A stretch of DNA of 64,000 bases from positions 37,043 to 101,042 of the forward strand of contig JBAXCZ010000004.1 in NCBI GenBank assembly GCA_037141195.1. The letters are read 5' to 3'. This document shows, piece by piece, positions 6,572-26,710 of this stretch; position 1 is the stretch's first letter, and every line of letters begins with the position of its first letter. Origin of the DNA: Clostridia bacterium (GTDB lineage: Bacteria; Bacillota; TC1; JBAXCZ01). A model generated the notes under the pieces. That model was not told where the DNA came from. It saw only the letters and a list, made by a program, of their open reading frames with translations, and made no database searches. The position numbers and the translations under genes are program-made.

Positions 6572-7531
6572 ATGTTTAGCTTAAGTAAAGATACAGTGAA
6601 AATAGTGCAAGAAAAAATATTACCAAAAGCTGAACAATTAAATTGTGCTGTTCATAATTTAAGCAATGGCGCAACTGTTGTCGATATGGGTATTCAAGCA
6701 GGTGGTAGCTGGGAAGCGGCTCAGCTTTTTACGGAAGTTACTTTAAGTGGCATGGGAATGGTAAGCTTTGGCAGATTCAAGTTAGGAAATATTGATTTGC
6801 CCTCGGTCAATGTACATATTAGCAAACCTCAAATTGCTTGTTTATCTTCGCAATTTTCTTCTTGGAAAATCCAAGCTGACGAAGAATATGAGATTACTGG
6901 CTTGGGTTCTGGGCCTGCGCGGGCACTTGCTCAAAATGATCATATAGCGGCTTTATGGGACTATCAAGATATGAATTTTGAAACTGTTTTTGCAGCTCAG
7001 ATGAGCAGCATTCCAGATGAAGAATTTGCGGAAAACATTGCAAAAGCCTGTAAAATAAAGCCTGAGAATTTATATATTATCGCTGCTAAAACAGGCAGTA
7101 TAGTAGGATCAGTACAAATTTGTGCAAGAATGATTGAAGCATCAATGTGGAGACTAAATTATGACGGATTTGACATAAAAAAAATCATCACTGCCTCGGG
7201 TTTTGCTCCAATTGCACCTTGTGTTAATAATGAACTGCTTGCTATGAATAGGGTGAATACAGCTGTATTATATGGTGCAACAGCAAGCTATATCGTGGAT
7301 TGTGAAGATGCAGAGATTGAAAGAATTCTTAATTCTTTAGCATTTTCATCCTCCAAGTTTTATGGTCGTGAGTTTTCAGACTTGTTTGATGAAGGTAGCA
7401 GGGATATTTTTAAGATGGATATTGATGCGCATAAAGTAGCCTGCATTGAAATTAATAATTATCGTACAGGAAGAAGTTTTAAGGTGGGAAATTTAAATGA
7501 GGAAATGCTTAGTAAGGCCTTCTTTAATTAA
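6572..7531 (+). CDS. methenyltetrahydromethanopterin cyclohydrolase (Mch) family protein, paralogue 1
   Basis: A 319-aa ORF. The NGATVVDMG..AGG, LSSQFS.W, GSGPARALA and GSIVGSVQICARMIE blocks, together with the length, match archaeal Mch as I recall it. A GGAGG RBS precedes the ORF. Confidence 0.7.
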   Translation: MFSLSKDTVKIVQEKILPKAEQLNCAVHNLSNGATVVDMGIQAGGSWEAAQLFTEVTLSGMGMVSFGRFKLGNIDLPSVNVHISKPQIACLSSQFSSWKIQADEEYEITGLGSGPARALAQNDHIAALWDYQDMNFETVFAAQMSSIPDEEFAENIAKACKIKPENLYIIAAKTGSIVGSVQICARMIEASMWRLNYDGFDIKKIITASGFAPIAPCVNNELLAMNRVNTAVLYGATASYIVDCEDAEIERILNSLAFSSSKFYGREFSDLFDEGSRDIFKMDIDAHKVACIEINNYRTGRSFKVGNLNEEMLSKAFFN

Positions 7532-7592: not shown

Positions 7593-8561
7593 ATGAATAA
7601 AGAAAACCTTATCAAGCTATATAGAGATATGCAGCTAATTCGGCGTTTTGAAGAAGAAGTCGATAAATGTGCAAAAAAGGGAATCATTCCCGGTTTTATT
7701 CACCTCAGTATCGGGCAAGAAGCGGCTCAAGCAGGAATGTGTCATGTCTTAAAAAAAACAGATTTCAAGTACCCTGATCACAGAGGTCATGGCGCAATAG
7801 TTTTGTGTGGTACCGAACCAAAACTTGTAATGGCAGAGATATTCGGTAAAAAAACAGGTATTAATGGTGGTAGAGGTGGCTCTATGCATATTAATGACTT
7901 GAAATGTGGAAATCTAGGATTTAATGGAATTCAAGGATCTACTCAGGTTACCGCACTTGGGACAGCTTTTGCTTCGGTTTATAAAAATAATGATGCAGTT
8001 TCAGTCATATTCATGGGCGATGGTACATTAGGTGAAGGTGCATGTCACGAAAGCATAAACATGGCCGCAACCTGGAAATTACCTATTATCTATTGCTTAA
8101 TAAATAATCAATATGCAATTTCAACACACTATCATGAAGCTCACCCTCAAAAAGAATTAAAAACCTGGGGCGAAGGCTATGAAGTTCCATCTTTTAGAAT
8201 TGATGGTAATGACGTGGAGGCAGTTGTTGCAGCAGCAGAGATTGCAGTACAGAGAGCTCGTGATGGCATGGGACCAACTTTATTAGAATTAATGAGTTAT
8301 CGCTGGCAAGGACATTTTTCTGGAGATCCAGCCGCCTATAGACCAGATGAAGAAGTGGCGTATTGGAAGGCTAAAGATCCACTTAAGATTACCAAGGAAA
8401 GATTATTAAACCTGCATGGTGTTAGCGAAAACGATCTTCTTGTTATAGAACAAGAAGTGGAATTGATTATTAAGGATGCAGTAGAATTTTCTATTTCCAG
8501 TCCAGAACCAGATGAGCAAGATGGACTCCTATATGTCTATGCTGATATGGAGGTGCAATAA
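7593..8561 (+). CDS. TPP-dependent dehydrogenase E1 alpha subunit (AcoA/PdhA-like)
   Basis: Shows the GFIHLSIGQEA, GGRGGSMH and GDGTLGEG...NNQYAIST TPP-binding motifs. Confidence 0.85.
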   Translation: MNKENLIKLYRDMQLIRRFEEEVDKCAKKGIIPGFIHLSIGQEAAQAGMCHVLKKTDFKYPDHRGHGAIVLCGTEPKLVMAEIFGKKTGINGGRGGSMHINDLKCGNLGFNGIQGSTQVTALGTAFASVYKNNDAVSVIFMGDGTLGEGACHESINMAATWKLPIIYCLINNQYAISTHYHEAHPQKELKTWGEGYEVPSFRIDGNDVEAVVAAAEIAVQRARDGMGPTLLELMSYRWQGHFSGDPAAYRPDEEVAYWKAKDPLKITKERLLNLHGVSENDLLVIEQEVELIIKDAVEFSISSPEPDEQDGLLYVYADMEVQ

Positions 8562-8563
8562 GC

Positions 8564-9544
8564 ATGAGTGAAAGAATAATATCTTTCTCAAAAGCAATTA
8601 ACGAAGCATTGATTCAGGAAATGACACGTGATGATAAAGTTTTTATTATCGGAGAAGATGTAGGAAAAATGGGTGGAGATTTCGGTGTTACCAGCGGTAT
8701 TTGGACAAAATGGCCACATCGTGCGAAAGACACAGCACTTTCTGAATCTGCAATTATTGGTCTTTGCTGTGGTAGTGCAATTTGTGGTTTGCGACCTGTA
8801 GCAGAAATGATGTTTGCTGATTTTATTGGGGTTGCATTTGACCAAGTAGTAAATAACGCTGCTAAATTACGCTATATGTTTAATGGAGAGGTAGGAGCAC
8901 AAATTGTTATCCGCGCAGTACAGGGTGGAGGTATTCGTTGTGCTTATCATCATTCTCAATGTATAGAGCCTTGGTTTATGAACACACCAGGCTTGGTTAT
9001 TGTAGCTCCAGCAACGCCTGCAGAGGCAAAAGGTTTACTGATAGCTTCTATAAGGAGTGATAATCCAGTAATCTTTTTAGAACATAAAATGCTCTATAAT
9101 AATAAAGGTATTGTAGATGAAGCCTGTGAAGAAATGCCATTATACAAAGCTCATATTGAGTGTGAAGGTAGTGACATTACGGTAATAGCAGCCATGACTA
9201 TGTTGCCTTTAGCCTTAGAAGCTTCAAAAATATTAAAAAAAGAGGGTATATCTTTAGAGGTAATTAATCCACGCACTATTGTACCATTAGATAAAGCAAC
9301 AATTCTTGCTTCAGTTGCTAAAACTGGGAGATTAGTTATTGTGCAAGAAGGCCCTAAGGTTTTGGGCTATGCGGCAGAAATATCTGCAATGTTGGCTGAA
9401 GATTTATTTGAATATCTTAAAGCGCCAATTAAAAGAGTAACCTCAAAAGATGTGCCTATGCCATTTGCACCAAAAATGGAAGATTACGTTTTGCCGAAAA
9501 GTTCCGATGTTCTTCGCGCCTGCAGAGAAACGATGAATTTTTAG
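8564..9544 (+). CDS. TPP-dependent dehydrogenase E1 beta subunit (AcoB/PdhB-like)
   Basis: Transketolase-like pyrimidine-binding and C-terminal domains. The gene follows the alpha subunit with a 2-nt gap. Confidence 0.85.
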   Translation: MSERIISFSKAINEALIQEMTRDDKVFIIGEDVGKMGGDFGVTSGIWTKWPHRAKDTALSESAIIGLCCGSAICGLRPVAEMMFADFIGVAFDQVVNNAAKLRYMFNGEVGAQIVIRAVQGGGIRCAYHHSQCIEPWFMNTPGLVIVAPATPAEAKGLLIASIRSDNPVIFLEHKMLYNNKGIVDEACEEMPLYKAHIECEGSDITVIAAMTMLPLALEASKILKKEGISLEVINPRTIVPLDKATILASVAKTGRLVIVQEGPKVLGYAAEISAMLAEDLFEYLKAPIKRVTSKDVPMPFAPKMEDYVLPKSSDVLRACRETMNF

Positions 9545-9610: not shown

Positions 9611-10777
9611 TTGAAAGAGTTTTTGGAATTTGATGTAGTTGTAATTGGAGCTGGTGTTTGCGGCATTGCAACAGCCTTAAGTTTAGCAGAGACAGGTGCT
9701 AAGGTAGCTGTATTAGAGAAAGGAGAAATATGTTCTGGTGCATCTAGCACTAATCCTGGATTTTGTGTGCTTAGTTACAGGGAAGATGCTTACTTAATGC
9801 AACTTGCTTTGGACCAGCAAAAACAATGGGTAGAATTTGCTGCACGGATTGGCTGTGAACTGGAATATAAGCAAAAAGGCGGCTTAATTATCTTGAATAA
9901 TCAAGAAGAATCAGCTGCTTTAGAGCAGTTGATGGAGAAATGTCGAAGTTTTGGCTTGAAAGAGATTGAAATGTTAAATAGCAAAAAAACTAAATTAATT
10001 GAACCTTACATTAATGAAAAAGCTATTGTAGGCAGTGTGTATTGCCAAGCAGAAGGAATGATTAATCCGTTCAAGTTAAATATTGCAATGGCTGATTATG
10101 CAAAAAAATTAGGGGTTGAGTTTTTTCTTTGTACTCAAGTTAATGGATTTGAAAAAAATAAGCAAGAAATAACTCTGATTAAAACAAATAGAGGAAACTT
10201 TAAGTCTAGCTTAGTAGTATTAGCTGCTGGCGCTTGGACTAGTCCAATAATAGAGCTTTTGCAAGAAAAAATTCCAGTTTTTTTCGATAAAGGTGAAGCA
10301 ATGGTTAGTATGCAAGTTGATAAGTTAGTTTATCACTCGATAACTGACGGCGGGTTGTTCATCCCATCAAATGAAAAAATGGTAATTGGAGCTTGCTTGG
10401 GGCAAACGAATTCTGGAAATATTGTGTTAGCACAAGCAACCACCAAGACAAATAAATATGATACAGCATCCACACCAACGGGAATGTCTAAGGTAGCAGA
10501 AAAGGCAGTTAGCTTATTCCCAAAATTAGCAGAAATAGATATTTTGCGGATGTGGAGTGGATTAATAGCATATACACAAGATCGAAAACCGGTTTTTGGA
10601 TTTATGAATGGTATAAATAACCTGCTGATAATTGCTGGTTTCCACAGTGCTATTGGAATTTCTCCGAAAATTGGAGCATTAGTTGCAGAATATTATATGA
10701 CAGGAAAATTACAGCAAGGTGTCTTGGGGTATTCACCAAAGAGGTTTGATGTTTTGAAAAAAAATGACAGCACTTAA
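9611..10777 (+). CDS. FAD-dependent oxidoreductase, DAO family (HcnC/OoxB/SoxB-like)
   Basis: N-terminal dinucleotide fold DVVVIGAGVCG...VLEKG..CSGAS. The ORF is 388 aa and starts with TTG. Confidence 0.8.
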   Translation: MKEFLEFDVVVIGAGVCGIATALSLAETGAKVAVLEKGEICSGASSTNPGFCVLSYREDAYLMQLALDQQKQWVEFAARIGCELEYKQKGGLIILNNQEESAALEQLMEKCRSFGLKEIEMLNSKKTKLIEPYINEKAIVGSVYCQAEGMINPFKLNIAMADYAKKLGVEFFLCTQVNGFEKNKQEITLIKTNRGNFKSSLVVLAAGAWTSPIIELLQEKIPVFFDKGEAMVSMQVDKLVYHSITDGGLFIPSNEKMVIGACLGQTNSGNIVLAQATTKTNKYDTASTPTGMSKVAEKAVSLFPKLAEIDILRMWSGLIAYTQDRKPVFGFMNGINNLLIIAGFHSAIGISPKIGALVAEYYMTGKLQQGVLGYSPKRFDVLKKNDST

Positions 10778-12578: not shown

Positions 12579-13405
12579 AGAGCGTTGTCTTGAAAATCGA
12601 TGATTTAAGCTATAAATATAGCACTGGGAGCACGGCCTTAGAGCATATAAATATAGAAATTTATGAAAACGAATTTGTGGCAATTATTGGTCAGAATGGA
12701 GCAGGCAAATCCACCCTGCTAAAGAATATTACTGGGTTATTAACACCAACAGTAGGAAATACATATGTAAATGGAAGAAATACAAAAGATCTCACCGTAT
12801 CAAAAATAGCTATGGAAATAGGGTTTGTCTTACAGAATCCTGATCGACAATTATTTGCTGAAACAGTAGAAGAAGAAGTAGCTTATGGACTAAAAAATGC
12901 AAAGTTACCAGCAGATTTAATAGAACAGAAGGTGGTAGAATCACTAACTGCAGTTGGCTTACAAGATAAAAGGAAAGAATTTCCACCAGCATTAAGTAAA
13001 GGAGATAGAGCAAAAGTAGTAATTGCCTCTGTAATTGCTATGGGGGCAAAGATCATAATATTAGATGAGCCAACAAGTGGTCAAGATTATCGGGGCTGTT
13101 ATCAAATTATGAACATAGCGAAGGAATTACATAAAATGGGAAGAACAATAGTTTTTGTTACCCATAATATGTCCTTAGTAGCAGAGTATGCCAAGCGAAT
13201 CATCGTAATGTCTAGAAAAAGAGTGATGATGGATAGCGATGCAGAAGATGTTTTTAGCCAGCCAGAAAAATTAGCAACCACCAATATAACACCTCCGCAA
13301 ATAACTTTATTAGCAAGTAAACTGCAGGAATTCATACCCATAAAAAAGACGGTGCTTTTTATAGATGAGCTTGGCGATGAATTACTCGTGCTTCATAGAA
13401 AGTAG
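12575..13405 (+). CDS. ECF transporter ATPase component A'
   Basis: Walker A GQNGAGKST and Walker B IILDEPTSGQD. The start overlaps the upstream stop by 4 nt. Confidence 0.9.
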   Translation: MKSVVLKIDDLSYKYSTGSTALEHINIEIYENEFVAIIGQNGAGKSTLLKNITGLLTPTVGNTYVNGRNTKDLTVSKIAMEIGFVLQNPDRQLFAETVEEEVAYGLKNAKLPADLIEQKVVESLTAVGLQDKRKEFPPALSKGDRAKVVIASVIAMGAKIIILDEPTSGQDYRGCYQIMNIAKELHKMGRTIVFVTHNMSLVAEYAKRIIVMSRKRVMMDSDAEDVFSQPEKLATTNITPPQITLLASKLQEFIPIKKTVLFIDELGDELLVLHRK

Positions 13406-13412
13406 GCGATGT

Positions 13413-14198
13413 ATGCGGATTGATGCTCATACACATATTACTTATCCAGCAAATATTTTATATGAAAAAATGCGGGCATTAAACTTTAATAAAGTAGTTG
13501 TATGCTCTGCTGGAGTTGCAAGAGGAGAAAAAATCACAACTTTCTCAGCTGCTAAAACAATGATGAGAAAAATTGGCTTAGCACAAAACCATGCTCAGTC
13601 CCAAACTATTGCAGAAATAAATAAGGAATTAGCAGAAGTAATTTCAGGGTATCAAGACCTTTTCATTGGTTTTGCAAAGCTGGATTTATTTCAAGAAAAC
13701 ATGAAAATGGATTTAGCGAGAGCAGTAGATTTAGGATTACAAGGCATTGGGGAAATAATTGGCATTCATCAAAACATAGATAAACTTGAGCTTGTTTTAC
13801 AGGTTGCCCATGAAGCTGAACTACCAGTATTTATTCATTGCGATTATCCAGTAGATAGTAACGATTTGACAAGCTTATTTAAGATTATTCCGAAATATAC
13901 TCAAGCTAAGATTATAATTGGTCACTTAGGTGGAGATTATTGGTTAGAGGTAATTGAACAAGCAAAAAAAATTAGCAATGTATACGTTGACACTTCAGAG
14001 GTGGTTAATCAGATTGCTTTACAAGTTGCAGTAAATACATTGCCAGAAAGGGTTTTATACGCTTCTGATTTCCCATGGGATGCTCCAGAAGCAATGCTGA
14101 CCAGAATAAATTGCTTAAAAAATAATGATGGTGTGAAAGCACAAGTTTTGGGTTTGAATTTTTTAAGAATCTTAAAGGGCGAAAAGCTCGTAAGATAA
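13413..14198 (+). CDS. amidohydrolase_2 (PF04909-like) TIM-barrel metal hydrolase/decarboxylase family
   Basis: Has the MRIDAHTHI N-terminus typical of this family. I prefer the ATG at 13413, after the upstream stop, over the overlapping track start at 13365. Confidence 0.6.
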   Translation: MRIDAHTHITYPANILYEKMRALNFNKVVVCSAGVARGEKITTFSAAKTMMRKIGLAQNHAQSQTIAEINKELAEVISGYQDLFIGFAKLDLFQENMKMDLARAVDLGLQGIGEIIGIHQNIDKLELVLQVAHEAELPVFIHCDYPVDSNDLTSLFKIIPKYTQAKIIIGHLGGDYWLEVIEQAKKISNVYVDTSEVVNQIALQVAVNTLPERVLYASDFPWDAPEAMLTRINCLKNNDGVKAQVLGLNFLRILKGEKLVR

Positions 14199-14220: not shown

Positions 14221-14961
14221 ATGAAAGAGAACAAAGTTGGAGACAAAAGACTGTTAGGAAGCATCCATCCAGCGGTAATAGCAGTGTGGGCAGCTGTAAT
14301 CGCAGCATCATGCATGTTACCATCAATCCCGCTACTAGGAACAGGTGGGACATTTTCCATTGCTACAGCACTAGTTCCATTGGCAGGTGTTTTATTTGGG
14401 CCAATTGGAGGAGCAATATGTGCAGCAATAGGAGGATTTATTGGACAATTGATTGCTCCACATATTGCCTGGATGGGATTAGCAACATTTTCCATTGGCG
14501 TAATCAATGCATTTTGTTCAGGTCTAATTAGCAGAGGTAAATGGCCATATGCAGTAGGCGTTCTAGGAATTGGAACAGTATTATGGTTTAGTACTGCAAC
14601 CGGTAGAGCAGTACCACTCTTTGCCATAGTATTTTATGGCGCTGGCTTACTTGTAACTGTTGTAGGTGGAATGTTCGCGAAAAAATGGTTACTTGGCAAA
14701 AATATTGCTTTAAAAACAGTAGCTGTATGGATATGTTCATTTGCAGGATTAGTAGGCGCAGCATCTATCGCTAATTATTTTGCCTTGACTATGTTCCAAA
14801 CACCAGCAGAGGTTTGGACAGTATTAACAGTAATGTCACCAATTGAGCGGACAATATTTGCAGTAGGCTCAGCAATAGTAGGGGTACCTTTGCTAGTTGG
14901 TTTGCCAAAGATTGGAATTTTCGTAGGACCACAGACAGTAGAAGTGGATGACGAAGAATAG
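14221..14961 (+). CDS. ECF S-component-like integral membrane protein, substrate unknown
   Basis: A 246-aa Gly/Ala-rich protein with about 6 TM helices, adjacent to ecfT/A/A'. An AAGGGGG RBS precedes it. Confidence 0.6.
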   Translation: MKENKVGDKRLLGSIHPAVIAVWAAVIAASCMLPSIPLLGTGGTFSIATALVPLAGVLFGPIGGAICAAIGGFIGQLIAPHIAWMGLATFSIGVINAFCSGLISRGKWPYAVGVLGIGTVLWFSTATGRAVPLFAIVFYGAGLLVTVVGGMFAKKWLLGKNIALKTVAVWICSFAGLVGAASIANYFALTMFQTPAEVWTVLTVMSPIERTIFAVGSAIVGVPLLVGLPKIGIFVGPQTVEVDDEE

Positions 14962-16771: not shown

Positions 16772-16951
16772 TTTCCTCCAAATCTTGCTAGTGTCTGTGA
16801 TGAAGAAACATATTTTGTTATTTTCTATTTATCCAGAAAAAGGTTACTTTTATGGCTGTAGATAATTGCTTGAAGAAATAAAAAAATATTTAGCTTGAGA
16901 GTACTTATGCTTAGATTCCATCAAAGTCTGAGAAAATTGTGGGGTGAGTTG

Positions 16952-18298
16952 ATGATTTTAATTAAGAATGCTAGTTATCTTGTTCAAAATCAGGACGAAA
17001 TATTAGAAAATGTAGATATTCTTGTTAAAGATAATAAGATTTTTAAGATTGGAAAAGATTTAGGACTAAATTATCCTTATGAAAAGGTTATTGATGCAAC
17101 CAATAAGATTGTTGCGCCTGGCTTTATCAATATGCATACGCATTTATATCAAAATATGTTGAAGGGAATGCGCGATGATTTAGGGCTTAAAGACTGGTGT
17201 GAAAATGTGACATTTCCTTTTGCGATGATTATTCGCTCACAAGATAAAGAACATAATAATCAAGATTTAGCTTATTATTATGGATTATTAGGAGCAATTG
17301 AAATGCTCAAAAGTGGGATAACTACTTTTGTAGATATGGATATAATCTATGATAGTCTTTTCCAGTCATGGCAAGATTTAGGAGTACGAGGGATAGGAGC
17401 AATACAAGCGGTAAATCGCTGGGTACCCAAAGAATTAATGGACACAGATGAAAAAAGAATGGAAGGTATTAAAGCAACAGTAGAGAAATGGCATAATCAG
17501 GGCATTCTAAAAGTAGCAATTGCACCATCTACTCCATTTGCCTGTACGCCTGATTTTCTAGAATGGTTAAAAAATTTAAGCATAGAAAAGGATTTAGGTA
17601 TCTATATCCATATTTCTGAAACTCTTTGGGAGGTGGAGCAGTCGCTTGCAGATTGTGGACTTACCCCACTAGCTTATCTAGACAGTATAAACTTTTTATC
17701 AAAACAAATTTGCGCAATTCATGGTGTGCATTTTACAGAAAAAGAAATGCAAATTGCCAAGGAAAAGCAGGTAACCATTTGCTACAATCCCAAAAGTAAT
17801 GCCAAATTAGGTAGTGGCATAGCACCAATGGTCGAGTATAAAAAACTGGGAATAGATATTTGTTTAGCAACAGACGGTGCAGCATCAAATGATTTATTGG
17901 ACATTTTTGAAGAGATGCGTTTTGGTGTTATGCTGCAGAAAGCCAAATATCAGGATCCTGCTTGTTTTATAGCTGAGGATATTTATCAGATGGCAACTAA
18001 AGCAGGAGCAAAATATTTAGATATCGATGCTGGAGAACTGAAGGAAGGGAAACTTGCAGATATCATAATTTTAGCAACGGAAGAAGCACATTTTGCACCA
18101 GTGCATAATATTATTCAGCAAATTGTCTACTGTGGGAAAGAAAAATCGGTAGAAACCGTTTTAATCAATGGCAAAATAGTAATGGAAGATCGAAAGATCA
18201 AAGGGGTTGATGAAAGTTCAGCCGTAAAAAAAGCAGTAGAATTAGCGAAACAACGATATGGTGAGACTAGTAGAAAAAAATTAAGTGCAGAATTTTAG
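16952..18298 (+). CDS. amidohydrolase, COG0402-type (aminohydrolase/deaminase/chlorohydrolase family)
   Basis: PGFINMHTHLYQ metal-binding motif and a 448-aa fold typical of this family. The ATG at 16952 follows a GGGGTGAG RBS. Confidence 0.8.
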   Translation: MILIKNASYLVQNQDEILENVDILVKDNKIFKIGKDLGLNYPYEKVIDATNKIVAPGFINMHTHLYQNMLKGMRDDLGLKDWCENVTFPFAMIIRSQDKEHNNQDLAYYYGLLGAIEMLKSGITTFVDMDIIYDSLFQSWQDLGVRGIGAIQAVNRWVPKELMDTDEKRMEGIKATVEKWHNQGILKVAIAPSTPFACTPDFLEWLKNLSIEKDLGIYIHISETLWEVEQSLADCGLTPLAYLDSINFLSKQICAIHGVHFTEKEMQIAKEKQVTICYNPKSNAKLGSGIAPMVEYKKLGIDICLATDGAASNDLLDIFEEMRFGVMLQKAKYQDPACFIAEDIYQMATKAGAKYLDIDAGELKEGKLADIIILATEEAHFAPVHNIIQQIVYCGKEKSVETVLINGKIVMEDRKIKGVDESSAVKKAVELAKQRYGETSRKKLSAEF

Positions 18299-18310: not shown

Positions 18311-18730
18311 ATGAAAAAGGTATTTATTGATTGTCCAGAATTAATTCCTTGTAACCCATGTGAATCAGCTTGTTCTTTTGGCGCAATCATTATTGGAAAA
18401 AATATCATAGACCTTCCACAAGTAGACCTACTTAAATGTACAGGGTGTGGAAAATGTGTAGCTGCCTGTCCCGGGCAAGCTTGCTTTGTTGTTGATGAAG
18501 ATTATCAAGATGATTTAGCTACGATTGATTTCCCATATGAATATCTTCCAGAGCCTGTTGTAGGGCTGCAAGTCTATGCAAGAGATAATGAAGGTAGAGA
18601 TATTTGTAAGGGGGAAGTAATTAAAGTAATTAAAAATAAAAATAATCAACAAACAACAATAATTAGGTTAGCAGTTCCCAAAAAAAATGTTTATCAAGTA
18701 AGAGGTATAGGGATTATTGAGGAGGGTTAA
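18311..18730 (+). CDS. 4Fe-4S ferredoxin-domain protein
   Basis: CTGCGKCVAACP motif plus an N-terminal CNPCESAC. The ORF is 139 aa. Confidence 0.7.
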   Translation: MKKVFIDCPELIPCNPCESACSFGAIIIGKNIIDLPQVDLLKCTGCGKCVAACPGQACFVVDEDYQDDLATIDFPYEYLPEPVVGLQVYARDNEGRDICKGEVIKVIKNKNNQQTTIIRLAVPKKNVYQVRGIGIIEEG

Positions 18731-19535: not shown

Positions 19536-19545
19536 GGTGTTAATT

Positions 19546-20100
19546 ATGAAAAAAATGTTTTTAACCTTTGATGGAGCACCAAATTCACAAGGTACCCCGA
19601 AAATTCTAGAAATATTAAATAAATATCAAATACAAGGAACTTTTTTTCTAGAAGGTAAGCGCCTAGAGTCTAATCAGCAGCTTGCTCAAGAAATAATTAA
19701 AGCGGGGCATAGCATTGGAAATCATTCCTATAGTCATACGGAATTTGATAAATTAGAGCTTGCCGAATGTCTTGCAGAAGTAGAAAACACAGATAATTTG
19801 ATAAGAAATATTCTAGGCATCAAAACAAGGCTAATAAGACCACCTGCAGGGAAAATCACAGAAATAGAGCAAAAGTACTTAGAAAAGCTTGGTTATATCA
19901 TTAGCTTATGGAATATCAGTATTAAAGATTGGCTAGGACCAGATGCAGCTAGCATTGCTGCTAGGTTGGTGAAAGAGTTAGGAAAAGATGAAATAATTTC
20001 AGTGATGCATGATCATGTGGAGTGGATACCAGAGGTTTTAGACATTTCAATTCCCTACATCAAAGCAAATGGTTATGAATTTTTACCAATGAAAATGTAA
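19546..20100 (+). CDS. CE4 / NodB-homology (polysaccharide deacetylase family) protein, short and cytoplasmic
   Basis: FLTFDGAP and GNHSYSH motifs. There is no signal peptide and the protein is about 184 aa. Confidence 0.75.
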   Translation: MKKMFLTFDGAPNSQGTPKILEILNKYQIQGTFFLEGKRLESNQQLAQEIIKAGHSIGNHSYSHTEFDKLELAECLAEVENTDNLIRNILGIKTRLIRPPAGKITEIEQKYLEKLGYIISLWNISIKDWLGPDAASIAARLVKELGKDEIISVMHDHVEWIPEVLDISIPYIKANGYEFLPMKM

Positions 20101-20156
20101 ATGAGGAATAAATAGCTAACTTAATATAAATTTGATAAATTGGAAGGAGCTTGACT

Positions 20157-21119
20157 ATGTTTAGTATCAACCAAGAGGCAGTAAGAATAGTTAAAGAGAA
20201 AATAATTCCTAATGTGGAAATGCTCAATTGCAAGTTACATTTATTGAAAAATGGGGCAACAGTTATAGATATGGGAGTAGAAATGCCTGGCGGATTTCTT
20301 GCCGGAAAATTATTTGTTGAAGCAACAATTGGTGGTATGGGTCATGTGGATTTTGGTAGATTTCAGTGTGGTGCTATTGATTTACCATCGATAGATGTAT
20401 ATATTGATCAACCACAGACAGCAACATTATCATCGCAATTCTCTGGTTGGAAAATGCCGGGAAAAAATTTAGATGGCTGGATTAATCCAATTGGTTCTGG
20501 ACCAGCAAGGGCAATTGCGAAGAATGATATTTTTGCTCAAAGTTGGAGCTATCAAGATCAGCATCATGAAACTGTTTTTGCCGCACAAACAGTAGAGCTA
20601 CCCGACGAAGAAATGGCAGAAATTATTGCCAAAGCATGTAAAATATCAGCATGTAATGTATATATTTTAGCAGCACGCACAGGGAGCCTAACAGGTTCAA
20701 TTCAAGTTTGTTCTCGTACGGTAGAGGCTTCAACATGGAGAATTTGTCGTAAAGGATTTGATATAGCTAAGATTATTAGTGGCATGGGTACTTGCCCAAT
20801 AGCTCCACCAATAAAAGATGAATTAAGGGCAATGGATAGAGTAAACACAGCATTATTATATGGAGTAACCGTGCGTTATTTAGTAGACTGTGCTGATTTA
20901 GAAATAACAAGTATAATTGAACAATTACCATTCAATGCCTCAAAAAGATATGGAGAAGAATTTATCGACTTATTCGAAGAAGGAAAACGCGATTTTTATA
21001 TAGTCGATAAGGATATCCACACAGTAGCTCGATATGAGATTACCAACATCGCCACAGGTAATACATTTAAGGCTGGAGTGCTCAGGGAAGATCTACTAGA
21101 AAAATCTTTGTTTCACTAG
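20157..21119 (+). CDS. methenyltetrahydromethanopterin cyclohydrolase (Mch) family protein, paralogue 2
   Basis: Collinear with the 6572 ORF at roughly half identical residues by eye: NGATVIDMG, LSSQFSGW, GSGPARAIA and GSIQVCSRTVE. The ATG at 20157 follows a GGAAGGAG RBS. Confidence 0.7.
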   Translation: MFSINQEAVRIVKEKIIPNVEMLNCKLHLLKNGATVIDMGVEMPGGFLAGKLFVEATIGGMGHVDFGRFQCGAIDLPSIDVYIDQPQTATLSSQFSGWKMPGKNLDGWINPIGSGPARAIAKNDIFAQSWSYQDQHHETVFAAQTVELPDEEMAEIIAKACKISACNVYILAARTGSLTGSIQVCSRTVEASTWRICRKGFDIAKIISGMGTCPIAPPIKDELRAMDRVNTALLYGVTVRYLVDCADLEITSIIEQLPFNASKRYGEEFIDLFEEGKRDFYIVDKDIHTVARYEITNIATGNTFKAGVLREDLLEKSLFH

Positions 21120-21150: not shown

Positions 21151-22290
21151 ATGGAAAAAACTAGAGTTCTAATTATAGGTGGAGGCATATTAGGAGCAAC
21201 TACAAGCTATTATTTAGCAAAGCAAGGTTATGCAGTTACAGTGCTAGAAAAAAATGAGCTAGCTTCAGGAGCCTCAGGTGCTAATCTAGGGCAAATTTCT
21301 ATTATAGATAGAGATGAACCCTGGCACCTTAAATTAGCATTAGAATCTCTAACTATATATGAAAACTTAAATCGAGAAACGCCCATAGCATATAAACAGT
21401 CTGGCGGGACAGTTGTCTTAATTAATGAAGAACAGGTAGAAGCAGCCAAACTTATGGCAGCGTATTTAGCTGCATATGGCATAGAGATTAGTTTTTATCA
21501 AGGTAAAGATATGCTGCGAATTGAACCATTTCTTGATTATACGAAAGTGCAAAGCCTAGCTTACTGTGCCCTAGAAGGAAAAATTGACCCTCTTGCAGCA
21601 ACCCTTACATTTTTTTCTAAGGCTAAAGAGCTTGGGGTAGAGATATTCACTAATACTTGTGTGGATAGTTTTGAGGTGGAAAATGGTAAAATTACGAAAG
21701 CTATTGCTAAGGAAAAAGAATATTTTGCAGATATTTTTATTAATGCAACTGGTGCCTGGGCAGGAGGCATAGGAGAACTTCTATGTCTAAAAATACCAAT
21801 TTGTTATCATCGTGGAACAGCTTTTGTTTCTCAACCTATAGCAAGTGTAATAAATGGGCCTGTTGTAGGTGGTGGTTTCATTTTGAAAAGTAGACTTGCT
21901 AGCGAAAAATTGAGAATTGGCTTGGCAGCAGTGCAAAATACCAATGGTAGTATCATCATAGCGCAAGCTACTGAAGAAAGCGAAGTTGATAGTAAAGAAA
22001 TAACAGCACAGGGGCTAACCTTAACGGCAGAAAAATTTATCACATATTTTCCAGCTCTAGCAGAATTGGAAATTGTCCGCGCATGGTCAGCAGTAACTCC
22101 ATACACAAAAGATGGGTTGCCTATATTTGGCTTTACTAAAAGCATCCAAAATTTCTTTGTAGTTGCTGGATTTAAGGGTGCCTTCTCAACTGCTCCAGCT
22201 GTTGGAAAAGCAGTGGCAAGAGCAATCAAGACAGGAATTGCCTATGAAAACAATAGTTTTTCTCCTGACAGAGAAATGCTGGAAAGCTAA
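21151..22290 (+). CDS. FAD-dependent oxidoreductase, DAO family, second copy
   Basis: RVLIIGGGILG...VLEKN..ASGASG dinucleotide fold. The ORF is 379 aa. Confidence 0.8.
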   Translation: MEKTRVLIIGGGILGATTSYYLAKQGYAVTVLEKNELASGASGANLGQISIIDRDEPWHLKLALESLTIYENLNRETPIAYKQSGGTVVLINEEQVEAAKLMAAYLAAYGIEISFYQGKDMLRIEPFLDYTKVQSLAYCALEGKIDPLAATLTFFSKAKELGVEIFTNTCVDSFEVENGKITKAIAKEKEYFADIFINATGAWAGGIGELLCLKIPICYHRGTAFVSQPIASVINGPVVGGGFILKSRLASEKLRIGLAAVQNTNGSIIIAQATEESEVDSKEITAQGLTLTAEKFITYFPALAELEIVRAWSAVTPYTKDGLPIFGFTKSIQNFFVVAGFKGAFSTAPAVGKAVARAIKTGIAYENNSFSPDREMLES

Positions 22291-22387: not shown

Positions 22388-24526
22388 TTGAATATCATAC
22401 CTGAAGATTATATAGAAAAAGTTTATGCTGGCTGGCTAGGAAAACTGATTGGAATACGGCATGGAGCTCCTATAGAAGGGTGGACCTATGAAAAAATAAA
22501 GAGAGTACACGGTACAATAACAGATTATCTAGTAGACTACAATGATTTTGCTGCTGATGATGACAGTAATGGACCTGTATTTTTTCTGAGAGCATTAGAA
22601 GATTATGATTATACACTCAAACTCACACCTGAGCAAATTGGTTTGACTTGGCTAAACTATGCACCATATGAACATGGTTTTTATTGGTGGGGAGGCTACG
22701 GAAAATCCACCGAACACACAGCATATTTGAATATGCGTAATGGTATCATGGCTCCAAAATCAGGTTCTATCCAGCAAAATGGGGTAACAGTAGCCGAGCA
22801 GATAGGTGGTCAAATTTTTATCGATACTTGGGGACTAGTAGCACCAGCTAATCCAAAACTTGCGGCAGCATATGCCAGAAAAGCAGCAAGTGTATCACAT
22901 GATGGAAATGGTATATTTGGTGGGATGTTTATTGCAGCATGTATAAGTGCGGCCTTTATTCAAGAAAATATCAAAGACATATTAGAAAGTGGCTTTTCTG
23001 TAATTCCGGCAGATTGCGATTATACATTAGTTATGCGTAGTGTTATGAGTTTTCACGAAAAATATCCAGAAGACTGGGAAAAATGTTTTAATTTTATTGA
23101 TGCTAATTATGGCTATGATAAATATCCAGGCAACTGTCATATAATTCCCAACGGAGCAGTTATGATTCTCGCGCTGCTATATGGTGAAAAAGATTTTACT
23201 AACTCCATTAACATCTGCAACATGTGTGGTTGGGATACGGATTGTAATGTAGCCAACATAGGCACGATATTAGGCGTGGCAAATGGCATCATCGGTCTTG
23301 ATTATAATAAGTGGCGAAAGCCCATTAATGATTTTTTTATATGCTCAAGCGTTATTGGCTCGCTAAATATCCAAGATGCGCCACAATTTACTACCTACAT
23401 CGCAAAATGGGGATATAAAATTGCGGGGCAAGAGCCGGAGAATAAATGGAAAAAAATATTATTTGGGGGCGCAGCAAGATTCCACTTCCAGCTTCCTGGT
23501 TCGACACATGGGTTTAGAGTAGCATCAGATTCGCTAACAAAACTGGAATATGCTCTGGTAAATACAAATATAGCAAACATGAATCTAAATGGATCACTTA
23601 AGGTCTCAGTGAACGGAATTGCTGCAGGGGAAGACTTTCGTATCTTCACAAAAACATATTATCGGCCTGAAGATTTTCATGATAGTAGGTATGATCCGTC
23701 TTTTTCGCCTGTTCTTTATCCAGGACAAAGCATCTCAGCTATGGTTATGCTACCTGAATGGTTAGAAAAATCTGAAATACTTGTTAGCATGTATGTGAAA
23801 GATGGGAATTACAACAAATATTTCGATTCAGAAAAAACCTTGCTGACAAGGGGAAAATGGAATCTATTAAATTTTAAGCTACCAAATATGGAGGGTGCTT
23901 GCTTAGAAGAGGCAGGCATAAGAGTAACTGTAAAATCAAATCAGAGGTTTTTGGATAATTCTCTAGTTATATATATTGCTAACTTGGATTTTTCAGGTAA
24001 GCCTAACTATACAATTGATTTTTCCAAAGAGCGGATGGAGTTTTGGAACGGATTACATCAGGAGGTAAGCCAGTTTACTTATCTCAAAGGAAACTGGGAA
24101 CTTGTAGATGATGAATTAGTTGGCAGCGCCTGTGATTTTGGAGAAGCATATACAGGGTCTTATGATTGGGAAGATTATACATTTGAGGCAACCTTAATAC
24201 CAGTAACTGGAGAATCTCATTATATGAATTTCCGAGTGCAAGGAGCAATTCGTTCATATGCATTTGGATTGGAATCAGATGGTAAGGCAATGCTTCGCAA
24301 GAACAACAACGGGTATTCAAAGCTAAGTGGAATAGACTTTGCATGGGAATACAATCATGAATACAGGTTTAGAGCTGAGGTAAAGTATAATTCAATCAGA
24401 ATATGGCATGAAAATATTCTGCTTGTTGAGTATTTTGATAATGATAACCCTTATCTCCAAGGCCAAATTGGTTTTTCTGTGTATAATGGAAGTCGTTGTA
24501 AGTTTAAGGAGTTGAGCATTTATTGA
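22388..24526 (+). CDS. ADP-ribosylglycohydrolase-family domain fused to a C-terminal DUF1080/LamG-like jelly-roll domain
   Basis: N-terminal GWLGKLIGIRHGAPIEG and GWDTDCNVANIGTILG motifs of the ARH family. The C-terminal region of about 200 aa resembles 3-keto-disaccharide hydrolase/DUF1080. The TTG start lies 8 nt after a GAGAGGTGAG RBS. Confidence 0.7.
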   Translation: MNIIPEDYIEKVYAGWLGKLIGIRHGAPIEGWTYEKIKRVHGTITDYLVDYNDFAADDDSNGPVFFLRALEDYDYTLKLTPEQIGLTWLNYAPYEHGFYWWGGYGKSTEHTAYLNMRNGIMAPKSGSIQQNGVTVAEQIGGQIFIDTWGLVAPANPKLAAAYARKAASVSHDGNGIFGGMFIAACISAAFIQENIKDILESGFSVIPADCDYTLVMRSVMSFHEKYPEDWEKCFNFIDANYGYDKYPGNCHIIPNGAVMILALLYGEKDFTNSINICNMCGWDTDCNVANIGTILGVANGIIGLDYNKWRKPINDFFICSSVIGSLNIQDAPQFTTYIAKWGYKIAGQEPENKWKKILFGGAARFHFQLPGSTHGFRVASDSLTKLEYALVNTNIANMNLNGSLKVSVNGIAAGEDFRIFTKTYYRPEDFHDSRYDPSFSPVLYPGQSISAMVMLPEWLEKSEILVSMYVKDGNYNKYFDSEKTLLTRGKWNLLNFKLPNMEGACLEEAGIRVTVKSNQRFLDNSLVIYIANLDFSGKPNYTIDFSKERMEFWNGLHQEVSQFTYLKGNWELVDDELVGSACDFGEAYTGSYDWEDYTFEATLIPVTGESHYMNFRVQGAIRSYAFGLESDGKAMLRKNNNGYSKLSGIDFAWEYNHEYRFRAEVKYNSIRIWHENILLVEYFDNDNPYLQGQIGFSVYNGSRCKFKELSIY

Positions 24527-24651: not shown

Positions 24652-25623
24652 ATGCGAGTAGCTATATTATTTAACCCTAACGCAGGTGGTAATAGTCACT
24701 ATACTAATATTGGAAAGATTTTGGGAGAACGATTAAAAGGCTGTAAAATAAAAACATACCCAGGACTTTATGGTCAAACATATATAGAAAATGCTGAAAT
24801 TGTCTCAAGGGTGAATGCTACTGGAGATTACCTTAAAGATCTTTATTCTATAATAATGGAGGTTATCAAAACAAATCCTGAGCTTTTAGTTTGTGTGGGC
24901 GGTGATGGGTTTTTAGCATATATAGCAGATGCAATGATTAGAAACAACATCAAGATTCCACTGCTAGGGATAGCGGGAGGAACTGCAAATGTAGGACCGC
25001 TGATCAATTTTACAGCTGCCAGCTTAATGAGGCTTGATTTAGCTAAAATCAAATTGTCACCAGTCGGTGCTTTGGAAGTAGCCCTTAATAAGAGTATCAA
25101 AGGATACGCTTTTAATGATGTGATAATTGGAAATACTTTTCTTGGGATGCTAAATGAACAAATGTCCAATATTGGTGTAGAAACCTTTATACAAACTGGA
25201 ATTAAAAAAAAGCTAGCACCGTCAACAGATATTGTGCTAGACTATTTTCAGATTGCAAAAAACGAGTTAACATTGCAGTTTAACATGAAAAAGCCTGCTC
25301 AAATTGTAATATCTCCAATTGAAGGAAAAAATTATCTAGGAAAAGCGATAACTGGTTTATTATGTCATGCAACTTTGACAAAAAGTAAAGCGGCATTAGC
25401 ATTACTTGACCGAGTAATAGTAAGCATGGAATCTGAGAACAAAGACAATGAGCTGATGTCGATTGAACAGCTGATTTTTACGGAAGAAGATAAGCTAAGT
25501 ATTTCAGGACTTTCTCGGAATGGTCATGTGATAATTGACGGAAATCCATTTATCAGACAAGCTAAAGAAGCGGTGAATATCAGGTGCATTGCAAATGCCG
25601 TTATTGGTGTTAATATGCTTTAG
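24652..25623 (+). CDS. NAD kinase / diacylglycerol kinase catalytic-fold protein (AcoX-like)
   Basis: VCVGGDGF and GIAGGTAN motifs of the ATP-NAD kinase fold. The ORF is 323 aa. Confidence 0.6.
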   Translation: MRVAILFNPNAGGNSHYTNIGKILGERLKGCKIKTYPGLYGQTYIENAEIVSRVNATGDYLKDLYSIIMEVIKTNPELLVCVGGDGFLAYIADAMIRNNIKIPLLGIAGGTANVGPLINFTAASLMRLDLAKIKLSPVGALEVALNKSIKGYAFNDVIIGNTFLGMLNEQMSNIGVETFIQTGIKKKLAPSTDIVLDYFQIAKNELTLQFNMKKPAQIVISPIEGKNYLGKAITGLLCHATLTKSKAALALLDRVIVSMESENKDNELMSIEQLIFTEEDKLSISGLSRNGHVIIDGNPFIRQAKEAVNIRCIANAVIGVNML

Positions 25624-25792
25624 ACTAGCTCAATAAATCATAATAAATTGTTACTATTAAAAGTAGATATATTAAGTATAAATTGAAGATATTAAGTGGA
25701 CAAATGCTAGTTGTGTAAAGATTTTAGTAGAGTTATAAACTAAAAAGATATGATTTTAATACTTTAACTTGCACTTCAGGGGGAAATATTGC

Positions 25793-26710
25793 ATGCCAAG
25801 GATAACCGTAATAGGCAGCTTAAATATGGATATGGTGATAACTACGCCTAAGATACCAGTAATTGGAGAAACTGTTTTGGGAAGCGGATTTGCGATGTTT
25901 CCTGGTGGTAAAGGTGCAAACCAAGCAGTTGCGGCAGCAAGACTCGGTGGTGATGTGACCATGATTGGGTGTGTGTGTGAAGATTTTTTCGGAAAAGAAT
26001 TAATTAGTAATCTTGCTAATAATGGAGTAAATATTTCACATATTCAGAAAACAGATAATTGTGCTACAGGTGTTGCGATGATAGTCGTTAAAGACGGCGA
26101 CAACCTAATTATTGTTGATCCAGGAGCTAATAGTAAACTTGAGGAGCAACAAATTCAAAATATGGAATTGATCATTGCAGAAAGTAAAATGCTTATTATA
26201 CAATTAGAAATACCTCAAAAAACTGTATTGAAAGCAATGCAATTAGCAAGAAAACATAATGTGCAAGTACTCTTAAATCCTGCACCTGCTAGTAAACTTA
26301 GCGATGAATTGTTAGCCTTAGTGGATATTTGCACTCCAAATGAAACTGAATGTGAAATCCTTACTGGGATAACTATCAAGCAAATAAAGGATGCAGAAAA
26401 AGCCGTGCGCTACTTAAATAAAAAAGACATACCAATAGTAATTGTGACAATGGGAGCAAAAGGCGTAGTATACAATCAAGGAGATAAAATTGTTCATAAG
26501 AAGGCAACTAGGGTTAGGGCAGTGGATACAACTGGGGCAGGTGATGCTTTTTCCGGCGCAATTGCTGTAGCATTAACTCAAGGGGTAGCTTTAGCTGATG
26601 CAATAGATTTTGCGAGTATGGTAGGAGCCATAACAGTTACTAAGAGGGGCGCGCAAGCTTCCTTTCCGAGTATTGAGGAAGTAAGAGCTTTTAAGGCAGA
26701 AATAATATAA
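25793..26710 (+). CDS. rbsK: ribokinase
   Basis: GGKGANQAVAAARLG and DTTGAGDAFSGA PfkB/ribokinase signatures. The ATG at 25793 follows an AGGGGGAAA RBS. Confidence 0.85.
   Translation: MPRITVIGSLNMDMVITTPKIPVIGETVLGSGFAMFPGGKGANQAVAAARLGGDVTMIGCVCEDFFGKELISNLANNGVNISHIQKTDNCATGVAMIVVKDGDNLIIVDPGANSKLEEQQIQNMELIIAESKMLIIQLEIPQKTVLKAMQLARKHNVQVLLNPAPASKLSDELLALVDICTPNETECEILTGITIKQIKDAEKAVRYLNKKDIPIVIVTMGAKGVVYNQGDKIVHKKATRVRAVDTTGAGDAFSGAIAVALTQGVALADAIDFASMVGAITVTKRGAQASFPSIEEVRAFKAEII

Follow-up and report, generated by a model that had tools for sequence, protein, structure and literature searches.

A multi-copy bacterial branch of the Mch family in conserved gene clusters predicted to dismantle N-heterocycles

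The DNA analysed here, called the window throughout, is a stretch of 64,000 nucleotides of contig JBAXCZ010000004.1 from a Clostridia bacterium. The gene of interest is an open reading frame (ORF) at 6572..7531 on the + strand whose product, Mch1, belongs to the family of methenyl-tetrahydromethanopterin (methenyl-H4MPT) cyclohydrolase, or Mch. It heads a cluster of about 20 kb that also encodes a second paralogue, Mch2. Mch1 is 319 aa long, begins with an ATG that is preceded at 8 nt by a GGAGG Shine-Dalgarno sequence, and matches PF02289 (MCH) with 329 bits (E = 3.8e-98, cutoff 25 bits), residues 3-317 aligning with positions 1-311 of the 311 in the profile. On the NCBIfam equivalog TIGR03120 it scores 285.5 bits, above the cutoff of 228.8. 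The solved Mch structures align with it over the full length (1QLM with 213 bits, then 4GVQ, 4GVR/4GVS and 4FIO), at identities to canonical Mch of 34-38%. An AlphaFold2 model made from a 48-sequence alignment reached a predicted local distance difference test (pLDDT) score of 95.2 and a predicted template modelling (pTM) score of 0.93. The model superimposes on 1QLM and on 4GVQ (H4MPT complex) with a template modelling (TM) score of 0.93 and a root mean square deviation of 1.9-2.1 Å, and it has the two-domain Mch fold; when it was compared with the folds in the PDB, Mch entries alone matched and the next best TM score was 0.13. The initial annotation of the window had assigned the ORF to the Mch family on the strength of motif blocks. 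Those blocks (NGATVVDMG, LSSQFSSW, GSGPARALA, SIVGSVQICARMIE and PIAP) are all present, and the profile and fold comparisons bear the assignment out. Mch1 is a full-length, intact Mch-family protein, and the uninterrupted ORF together with the high confidence of the model rules out a pseudogene or gene decay. The GC fraction of the window is 0.33-0.42 and that of the Mch1 cluster equals its surroundings, so recent horizontal acquisition of the cluster is not indicated. The genes recA, recX, rny and ymdB and a 6S RNA lie upstream of Mch1, and the closest relatives of Mch1 (77%) and Mch2 (82%) both occur in one Defluviitaleaceae metagenome-assembled genome (MAG; Lachnospirales, Bacillota), in agreement with the low-GC Gram-positive setting that had been proposed.

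Like canonical Mch (EC 3.5.4.27; 1QLM, 4GVQ/4GVR/4GVS, 4FIO), with which it shares Pfam and TIGRFAM family, length and two-domain fold, Mch1 has the Arg183/Glu186 pair, Q93, the SGP-R113 motif, Q179 and N226. Its R186 and E189 align with R183 and E186 of the A. fulgidus enzyme, in which Glu186 reportedly acts as the general base with Arg183 as its partner. We take these positions to have the same catalytic roles in Mch1; comparison of the PDB sequences shows that 4GVR/4GVS is the E186Q variant of 4GVQ, which agrees with these roles. The chemistry is presumably also that of canonical Mch, with water adding to an amidinium carbon to yield an N-formyl product. Q143 and H287 of Mch1 stand where canonical Mch has E140 and F280. 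Within the active-site segment 93-95, which reads Q-K-A in the solved archaeal enzymes, the Q is kept, K94 is replaced by F and A95 by S; position 94 varies among some archaeal homologues too, and A95 is found in 30 of the 30 archaeal and planctomycete sequences that served as the canonical reference and that define 42 positions conserved at 87% or more. Other canonical invariants changed in Mch1 are G223 (to N), D227 (to T) and G49 (to A).

Several of these differences recur across a branch of the family. At 50% identity the small PF02289 family forms 910 clusters among 1.84 billion representatives, and in a neighbour-joining tree without support values the Mch of M. kandleri, A. fulgidus, Methanobacterium and one planctomycete form the canonical clade, with Mch1 and Mch2 placed apart from the archaeal and planctomycete enzymes in a separate bacterial superclade. 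Its subgroup A, the Mch2 type, spans Bacillota, Chloroflexota, Acidimicrobiia and Spirochaetes at 64-82% identity; subgroup B holds Mch1 and a single relative; subgroup C is a "triad" type; subgroups D-F hold the paralogues on a contig of a matching MAG (locus L017, described below) and their relatives; and subgroup G consists of very divergent copies. Every bacterial subgroup keeps G110, P111, Q179, R183 and E186, and D37, Q93, S109, R113 and N226 are kept too, save in the divergent groups F or G. E140, present in 30/30 canonical sequences, is Q in every bacterial subgroup, and F280, likewise 30/30, is replaced by H except in subgroup F, which has D. A95S, G223D/N and D227T/S are additional changes of subgroups A-C. 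Among 233 family members the E/F combination occurs in 106 and Q/H in 91, and R183/E186 is kept in 229. Intact catalytic residues combined with changes at two invariant non-catalytic positions are what one would expect of an enzyme that applies the same chemistry to another substrate.

The genes from Mch1 to the ribokinase and GntR genes (6572-27579) all lie on the + strand, with short or overlapping intergenic gaps:

6572..7531, + strand: Mch1, predicted Mch-fold cyclohydrolase of the bacterial Q140/H280 superclade, subgroup B (PF02289, TIGR03120, model fold)
7593..8561, + strand: E1 alpha subunit of a thiamine pyrophosphate-dependent 2-oxoacid dehydrogenase of the pyruvate dehydrogenase (PDH) type (PF00676, 259.5 bits; TIGR03182, 324 bits, below cutoff)
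8564..9544, + strand: E1 beta subunit (PF02779 and PF02780; NF006667, 331 bits, above the cutoff of 321)
9611..10777, + strand: DAO1, FAD amine oxidoreductase of the SoxB/proline dehydrogenase beta type (PF01266, 201 bits)
10902-11711, 11715-12578 and 12575-13405, + strand: T component and two ATPases of an energy-coupling factor (ECF) transporter (PF02361 CbiQ; ATP-binding cassette (ABC) ATPase sequences)
13365..14198, + strand: Amidohydro_2 hydrolase or decarboxylase within the transporter module (PF04909, 69 bits; no NCBIfam match)
14221..14961, + strand: ECF S (substrate-capture) component (PF07155, 40 bits)
15078-15398, 15382-16476 and ~16424-16771, + strand: split set resembling the SoxA N-terminal half and HcnAB, namely Fer2_4, Pyr_redox_2 and BFD/SO_alpha_A3 (PF13510, PF07992, PF04324, PF17806)
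16895..18298, + strand: AH1, cog0402-type amidohydrolase (PF01979, 223 bits; below every NCBIfam equivalog cutoff)
18311..18730, + strand: small 4Fe-4S ferredoxin-like protein (Fer4 families), conserved in loci L012, L022, L023 and L030
18717..19535, + strand: MeTr-like pterin-binding protein (PF00809, 60 bits; NF005719, 206 bits, below the cutoff of 259)
19537..20100, + strand: short hydrolase of the carbohydrate esterase 4 (CE4, polysaccharide deacetylase) fold, 187 aa, proposed deformylase (PF01522, 105 bits; below all NCBIfam cutoffs)
20151..21119, + strand: Mch2, second Mch-fold paralogue, subgroup A, 322 aa (PF02289, 334 bits; TIGR03120, 270.5 bits)
21151..22290, + strand: DAO2, second FAD amine oxidoreductase, ThiO/SoxB/D-amino-acid dehydrogenase-like (PF01266, 203 bits; all below cutoffs)
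22388..24526, + strand: ADP-ribosylglycohydrolase-family protein, 712 aa (PF03747, 168 bits, residues 15-302)
24652..25623, + strand: DAGK_cat-like kinase-fold protein, a weak match (PF00781, 27.6 bits)
25769..26710, + strand: ribokinase (TIGR02152, 369.7 bits, above the cutoff of 299.65)
26845..27579, + strand: GntR-family regulator, candidate regulator of the cluster (PF00392)

No internal terminator defines sub-operons, and a promoter/terminator scan gave no excess over shuffled sequence. No riboswitch was found in 6000-27700 even at E <= 1, the single match being the 6S RNA. That 6S/SsrS RNA lies at 6179-6355 (+; Rfam, 59.9 bits) behind a strong promoter-like site at 6149-6176 (11/12 matches and an extended TG), and a hairpin with a T-run at 6381-6427, terminator-like for the 6S RNA, is located just before the promoter region of Mch1. 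At 6515-6538 (+), about 35 nt before the Mch1 start, the motif TAAGTAGTACA is repeated perfectly in tandem (TAAGTAGTACA-nn-TAAGTAGTACA). It was considered as a candidate operator and set aside, as the repeat is absent elsewhere in the window and its two matches are not above chance.

Many parts of this arrangement are found again at related loci, which we cite by L numbers. The order MCH-E1a-E1b(-E2) recurs at L017, L013 and L062; the ECF T/ATPase module is also present in L012, L021, L023 and L050, and the Amidohydro_2 gene keeps the same position in L012, L021 and L023. The ECF S component has a 60% identical orthologue in L021, and a PDB sequence search gave no relative of it. GntR genes border the equivalent clusters in L012, L023, L025, L030 and L050. 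AH1 is related to methylthioadenosine/S-adenosylhomocysteine, 5'-deoxyadenosine and 8-oxoguanine deaminases, to TRZ/ATZ hydrolases and to SsnA; its nearest PDB entry is 4F0R (192 bits), and it is closest to the deaminases of purine and adenosine analogues. A PuuE-type allantoinase was considered for the CE4 gene and is unlikely, given the short domain (187 aa) and the lack of such an NCBIfam match. The C-terminal ~400 aa of the ADP-ribosylglycohydrolase-family protein gave no Pfam, NCBIfam or PDB sequence match.

The flavoenzymes of the cluster resemble heterotetrameric sarcosine oxidase, HcnABC and the Pyrococcus proline dehydrogenase PDH1. DAO1, which among PDB chains comes nearest to 1Y56_B (125 bits) and then to glycine and sarcosine oxidases, corresponds to the beta subunit, and the Fer2_4, Pyr_redox_2 and SO_alpha_A3 set corresponds to the N-terminal half of SoxA, with partial matches to TIGR01372 soxA and to residues 129-446 of PDB 2GAG_A. 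A DAO-type beta subunit and the 2Fe-2S, FAD/NAD and A3 domains of the alpha subunit are all encoded here (PF01266, PF13510, PF07992, PF17806). Unlike sarcosine oxidase, however, the cluster lacks the folate-binding, C-terminal GCV_T half of SoxA and encodes a separate MeTr-like pterin-binding protein instead.

Mch2, which like the MeTr-like gene had escaped the initial annotation, is 55% identical to Mch1, starts 13 kb downstream of it and lies directly 3' of the CE4 gene; its orthologues in Bacillota, Chloroflexota, Acidimicrobiia and Spirochaetes are 64-82% identical, and an exact-sequence database look-up of Mch2 returned no record. Window positions 42560-64000 are matched over 21,441 bp, at 100.000% identity, by a contig of MAG GCA_964510155.1. 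A second contig of the same MAG, CAZEBG010000002.1 (L017), carries four further PF02289 genes (319, 321, 331 and 238 aa) at 5010-12755, of which three form a tandem array; they lie next to GntR and LacI regulators, a short-chain dehydrogenase/reductase, E1 alpha/beta and E2, an FMN reductase and a Bmp-type ABC transporter. Subject to the accuracy of binning, the source organism carries at least six Mch paralogues. Mch1 had at first been treated as an isolated oddity. That view has to be given up, since the gene heads a conserved cluster of some 20 kb with a paralogue 13 kb further on, four more copies lie in the MAG, and the bacterial clade is widespread.

The rest of the window contains two other catabolic systems. 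A nucleoside catabolism operon at 32952-41302 comprises a divergent DeoR gene, deoC, a Bmp-type ABC transporter, cdd and a pyrimidine-nucleoside phosphorylase gene (pdp); it is followed by tRNA-Pro (-), tRNA-His and tRNA-Lys at 41366-41809. A cluster of the reductive uric-acid (2,8-dioxopurine) type at 47197-58926 (+) encodes a hydantoinase (TIGR02033, 447 bits, above cutoff), a carbamate kinase, a carbamoyltransferase, an SsnA-like amidohydrolase, a three-subunit xanthine dehydrogenase (XDH) and an 876-aa fusion of DHO_dh and GltD-like parts that resembles UacX joined to YgfK. The Mch1-Mch2 cluster (6.5-27 kb) contains no XDH, hydantoinase, carbamoyltransferase or YgeX gene and so does not qualify as a reductive uric-acid cluster itself, for which an XdhD-type Mo enzyme, a YgfK or UacX reductase, SsnA, HyuA, YgeW/UacY, YgeY and YgeX have to occur side by side. 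Family-profile searches of the whole 64-kb window found no fae, mtd, ftr/fhc or H4MPT-biosynthesis genes. The earlier statement that the H4MPT pathway is otherwise missing from the window thus stands for fae, mtd, ftr and fhc, and it is not entirely accurate as regards pterin-related genes, in view of the MeTr-like Pterin_bind gene at 18717-19535 and of the Mer-like gene in related clusters.

Related loci were collected by scanning one genome for each GTDB species with a profile, using a narrower alignment (A2) because the broad one (A1) was too diverse. The scan gave 53 loci, all of them from MAGs, and neighbouring ORFs were clustered in 55 loci; neighbours were counted within 10 kb of the Mch gene, and subgroup counts refer to loci of at least 15 kb. 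The commonest neighbour is the cog0402 amidohydrolase (AH1), which is found in 37 of the 55 loci and is mostly directly adjacent. It is followed by ABC ATPases (35), DAO (30), Bmp-type permeases (29), CE4 (23), the Bmp binding protein (23), Pyr_redox_2 (18), luciferase-like proteins (16), Fer2_4 (15), the XDH Mo subunit (13) and Pterin_bind (12, mainly in Anaerolineae). The 25 loci of subgroup A have AH1 in 19, CE4 in 17, DAO in 16, Pyr_redox_2 in 14, luciferase-like genes in 13, Pterin_bind in 10, XDH in 2 and hydantoinase in none; CE4 (10 loci) or a transporter permease lies directly upstream of their Mch gene, and AH1 directly downstream (17). Subgroup C (11 loci) has AH1 in 10, DAO and XDH in 9 each, hydantoinase in 7, a UacX-like gene in 5, and no CE4, Pterin_bind or luciferase-like gene; here AH1 is directly upstream (9) and DAO directly downstream (10). 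These subgroup C genes sit inside purine-degradation islands with XDH, hydantoinase, a UacX-like gene and YgeY. At L062 (Christensenellaceae), for example, the order is E1a-E1b-E2-E3-SsnA-like-UacX-like-MCH (divergent)-AH1-MCH-DAO-hydantoinase-XDH-YgeY-XDH, with the hydantoinase on the opposite strand. The Bmp binding protein is closer to AtzT and BMP, which bind purine bases, than to PnrA (nucleoside) or RfuA (riboflavin); its best structural relative is 7X0R 'Lbp', for which our literature search found no ligand. One 387-aa database protein (P0081) joins Mch to the start of a DAO; its junction looks frameshifted and is probably an assembly or gene-calling artefact that reflects the MCH-DAO adjacency.

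A few other features of these loci deserve mention. The UxaC/PfkB/MBL/PHO4 genes upstream of the Anaerolineae clusters probably represent synteny shared between related genomes and not members of the pathway. Anaerolineae clusters end with two genes without a Pfam or NCBIfam match, seen in L032 at 18697-20178 (-) (c18, 493 aa) and 20384-20908 (-) (c26, ~174-249 aa). L049 (RPOO01000226.1, labelled Methanothrix sp. bin.308) is a 5-kb contig with a bacterial-type luciferase-CE4-MCH-ABC arrangement whose MCH is 64% identical to Mch2. Its presence in a methanogen bin is probably a binning error from co-abundance, and misbinning of this type could give a methanogen MAG an apparent extra mch gene.

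The simplest explanation of these genes would be ordinary H4MPT-dependent one-carbon (C1) metabolism in an organism that makes H4MPT or dephospho-H4MPT and has the other pathway genes elsewhere in its genome. Scores above the equivalog cutoff of TIGR03120, the intact catalytic residues and the database names of all relatives (methenyl-H4MPT cyclohydrolase) are in its favour. Yet fae, mtd and ftr/fhc are absent from the 55 related loci (within 10 kb) and from the 21 kb of L017 as they are from the window, and the same holds for biosynthesis genes. The clade is also separate from archaeal, Methanobacterium and planctomycete Mch, two canonical invariants are replaced, and catabolic operons hold multiple paralogues. 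Fermentative Bacillota, Anaerolineae and similar taxa carry the genes, and H4MPT is not known to occur in such organisms. The short contig of a control locus with a canonical bacterial Mch, that of a planctomycete (L010), showed no H4MPT genes either and carries no weight in this comparison. We consider this explanation very improbable, and the doubt about ordinary H4MPT metabolism expressed in the initial annotation is upheld by the lack of pathway partners in the window and the related loci and by the separate clade. Unlike canonical Mch, the bacterial clade is multi-copy and occurs in catabolic operons with transporters, amidohydrolases and flavoenzymes. Mch1 and Mch2 probably act outside H4MPT C1 metabolism, and their cluster probably imports and dismantles an N-heterocycle, perhaps a purine-type base or nucleoside, as far as gene content can tell.

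Two alternatives had been offered for such a case, namely that the enzyme acts on an imported H4MPT-like molecule or that it opens a different cyclic amidinium ring. Both survive the present analysis, and the gene context favours the second. We give a slightly less than even chance to the reading that Mch1 is a cyclohydrolase which acts on a purine-type substrate and opens its cyclic formamidine ring, leaving an N-formyl product. From the residues and the neighbouring genes we infer the following course. The ECF importer would bring in a purine-type heterocycle. As in canonical Mch, a Glu-activated water would attack the carbon of an -N=CH-N- (formamidine or formamidinium) unit, such as C8-H in the imidazole or imidazoline ring of a purine that is reduced or cationic, and the ring would become an N-formyl amine. 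Opening or deamination of the other ring would fall to the adjacent cog0402 amidohydrolase, and formate would be set free from the formyl group by the CE4 enzyme beside Mch2. Oxidation of the amine and 2-oxoacid fragments could then be the task of the SoxAB/HcnABC-like dehydrogenases, the DAO enzymes and the PDH-type E1(/E2/E3), with the ADP-ribosylglycohydrolase and ribokinase handling a ribosyl part.

A close parallel is the reductive uric-acid pathway, where the reduced purine has one ring opened by SsnA (cog0402) and the other by the hydantoinase HyuA (10.1101/2025.05.19.654654). In Chloroflexota an F420 luciferase-family enzyme replaces YgfK/UacX (10.1101/2025.05.19.654654). The Mch clusters are similar in that a cog0402 amidohydrolase stands beside a reductase (UacX, YgfK or F420 luciferase-like) and is joined by a second ring-opening hydrolase. 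With the cog0402 amidohydrolase as the main adjacent partner, this parallel makes that second hydrolase the likeliest role for Mch, which would replace the hydantoinase of the SsnA and HyuA pair where the ring carbon is at the oxidation level of formate, not carbonate. The known pathway differs in using a hydantoinase on an 8-oxo ring together with ureido hydrolases, and the AH1 genes next to Mch do not reach the SsnA cutoffs. Neither 10.1101/2025.05.19.654654 nor 10.1101/2025.04.24.650524 mentions a cyclohydrolase, a formyl intermediate or Mch. Purine-type ring opening would account for the expansion of paralogues, the purine-island contexts, the type of transporter and the altered invariant residues. 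We count as support the likeness of the Bmp binding protein to purine-base binders, the relationship of AH1 to deaminases of purine and adenosine analogues, and the nucleoside operon and uric-acid-type cluster in the same window.

Chemical precedents for the proposed step exist. GTP cyclohydrolase III (ArfA), which works with the formamide hydrolase ArfB, IMP cyclohydrolase and FolD all open a ring at its N=CH-N carbon, which ends up as an N-formyl group, and in the ArfA/ArfB case a separate deformylase acts after ring opening. The pairing of MCH with CE4 may be analogous to ArfA/ArfB in a chemical sense only; ArfA/ArfB, IMP cyclohydrolase and FolD are unrelated to it in fold and catalytic device, and they are biosynthetic, not catabolic.

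Several observations weigh against a purine-type substrate. The subgroup A clusters, including that of Mch2, carry MeTr-like Pterin_bind genes (10/25 loci), and a homologue of the Mer clade is present in 13/25 subgroup A loci, in Chloroflexota and Actinomycetota. The co-occurrence of three enzyme families of tetrahydropterin C1 chemistry argues for a pterin-type substrate, and the retention of 18 of the 23 canonical invariant positions other than Gly/Pro in subgroup A fits a similar substrate head group. XDH and hydantoinase genes are almost never found in subgroup A clusters. Aromatic purine C8 is a poor electrophile, so that prior reduction or alkylation must be assumed. Mch1 itself, in subgroup B, has one close relative only, and its own context evidence is thin. 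The bacterial clade is known here from genes alone, its relatives all come from MAGs, and the family tree carries no support values. No single substrate stands out among 7-methylguanosine, 1-methyladenosine, xanthine/hypoxanthine, folates and methanopterin.

The assignment of the luciferase-like neighbours to the Mer clade is based on scores of 182 and 165 bits on two Mer models, versus at most 81 for other luciferase-like families; the top six PDB matches are Mer structures (76-136 bits), the next family reaching 46 bits, and the scores stay below the equivalog cutoffs. The gene lies beside Mch2-type genes in Chloroflexota, Acidimicrobiia and others (16 loci, e.g. L032 16360-17313 (-)), and it may be the F420-dependent luciferase-family enzyme that was noted beside SsnA homologues (10.1101/2025.05.19.654654). 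These neighbours bring in a second explanation, a folate-based C1 module. In this scheme the SoxAB-like dehydrogenase would take an N-methyl or N-alkyl C1 unit from an imported compound and pass it to tetrahydrofolate (H4folate) on the MeTr-like subunit. Mer-like (or DAO), Mch-like and CE4 proteins would oxidise methylene-H4folate through methenyl- to formyl-H4folate and release formate, which would make Mch1 and Mch2 methenyl-H4folate cyclohydrolases. The Mch-, Mer- and MeTr-like genes do co-occur with CE4 across phyla, the CE4-MCH-Mer-like trio stands by itself, without other partners, in Acidimicrobiia (L016, L047), and most canonical invariant positions are retained. The DAO and Fer2_4/Pyr_redox_2/SO_alpha_A3 proteins resemble the beta and alpha subunits of sarcosine oxidase, which form methylene-H4folate. 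A switch to folate has also been suggested in the literature for the Mch and Mer of haloarchaea: the homologues HVO_2573 and HVO_1937 are proposed, untested, to act on tetrahydrofolate (PMC8305020). The Mch-like/Mer-like pair of the Chloroflexota and Actinomycetota clusters recalls that case, which sets a precedent for Mch and Mer in organisms without methanopterin. The haloarchaeal proteins differ, however, in that they are thought to be housekeeping C1 enzymes and are not in a transporter-linked catabolic cluster. Moreover, haloarchaeal-like sequences, identified by acidic composition only, keep E140/F280, which the bacterial clade does not, and this weakly suggests that Q/H is not simply a folate signature. 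A folate module would leave unexplained why a cog0402 amidohydrolase is the main directly adjacent partner and why one genome has six paralogues. Subgroup C and divergent copies occur in XDH/hydantoinase/UacX-like purine islands without Pterin_bind or Mer-like genes, which overall are present in just 12/55 and 16/55 loci, respectively. There is no corrinoid protein beside the MeTr-like gene, and bacteria normally use FolD. We regard this explanation as unlikely, though it has to be taken seriously.

The pterin-related genes can also be read as a means of scavenging cofactors, in which case the imported molecule would be a C1-loaded folate, or methanopterin or sarcinapterin from neighbouring methanogens, in line with the imported H4MPT-like molecule of the initial annotation. 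The Mch-, Mer- and MeTr-like proteins and CE4 would strip off the C1 unit, AH1 would serve as a pterin deaminase, and the SoxAB-like enzyme would cleave the pterin-CH-NH-aryl bond. The ADP-ribosylglycohydrolase and ribokinase would take the alpha-ribosyl side chain, and DAO and E1 the hydroxyglutarate/2-oxoglutarate. Such a pathway covers nearly all gene classes of subgroup A, including AH1 and the Mch/Mer/MeTr-like trio, and ECF importers are typical for vitamins and cofactors. Pterin catabolism merges with purine degradation (deaminase, lumazine, Mo-dehydrogenase, xanthine; PMC12391406), which would explain the XDH neighbours. The carriers are all MAGs, several with isolate names of a digester or groundwater type, and one contig was binned as Methanothrix. 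On the other hand, a single methenyl-pterin species needs no six paralogues, the Bmp binding protein looks like a binder of purine bases, and the clade-wide E140Q/F280H changes argue against an unchanged pocket for the H4MPT head group. Subgroup C has no CE4, Mer-like or Pterin_bind genes, and no enzyme of such a pathway is described in the literature that we searched. Here, too, we see a small chance, again one to be taken seriously.

Ring opening of a purine-type heterocycle therefore remains the reading that we favour for Mch1. Extended to the family, it would mean that Q140/H280-clade Mch proteins are catabolic purine (imidazole/imidazoline) cyclohydrolases which, together with the cog0402 enzyme (and a CE4 deformylase in subgroup A), form a previously unrecognised, formate-releasing hydrolytic route in anaerobes for C8-H or cationic methylated purines; this broader proposal is tentative and on balance doubtful. 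If it is true, the purine cyclohydrolase route would parallel the hydantoinase branch of the 2,8-dioxopurine pathway, and the Mch fold would for the first time have a function other than tetrahydropterin C1 chemistry. Our literature search found no paper on a bacterial, non-H4MPT Mch clade, and the Lost City Chloroflexi and acetate-oxidiser preprints mention Mch for methanogens only.

What the genes describe is an uncharacterised, multi-copy bacterial branch of Mch, embedded in clusters whose content points to N-heterocycle catabolism and annotated as a methanogenesis-type enzyme. Because its members score above the TIGR03120 equivalog cutoff, pipelines label them methenyl-H4MPT cyclohydrolase. 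Several metagenomic papers on methanogenic communities mention that enzyme, and bacterial paralogues, up to six per genome, would inflate mch counts in studies of this kind. It was not until 2025 that the pathways by which gut and digester bacteria degrade purines anaerobically were elucidated. Mch genes lie inside or beside purine islands in MAGs of Oscillospiraceae, Christensenellaceae, Lachnospiraceae and Anaerolineae, and they may mark an undescribed branch or substrate range of these pathways. The Mch fold has so far had one known job, in methanogens, other archaea and methylotrophs, and a catabolic bacterial branch would add a new activity to it.

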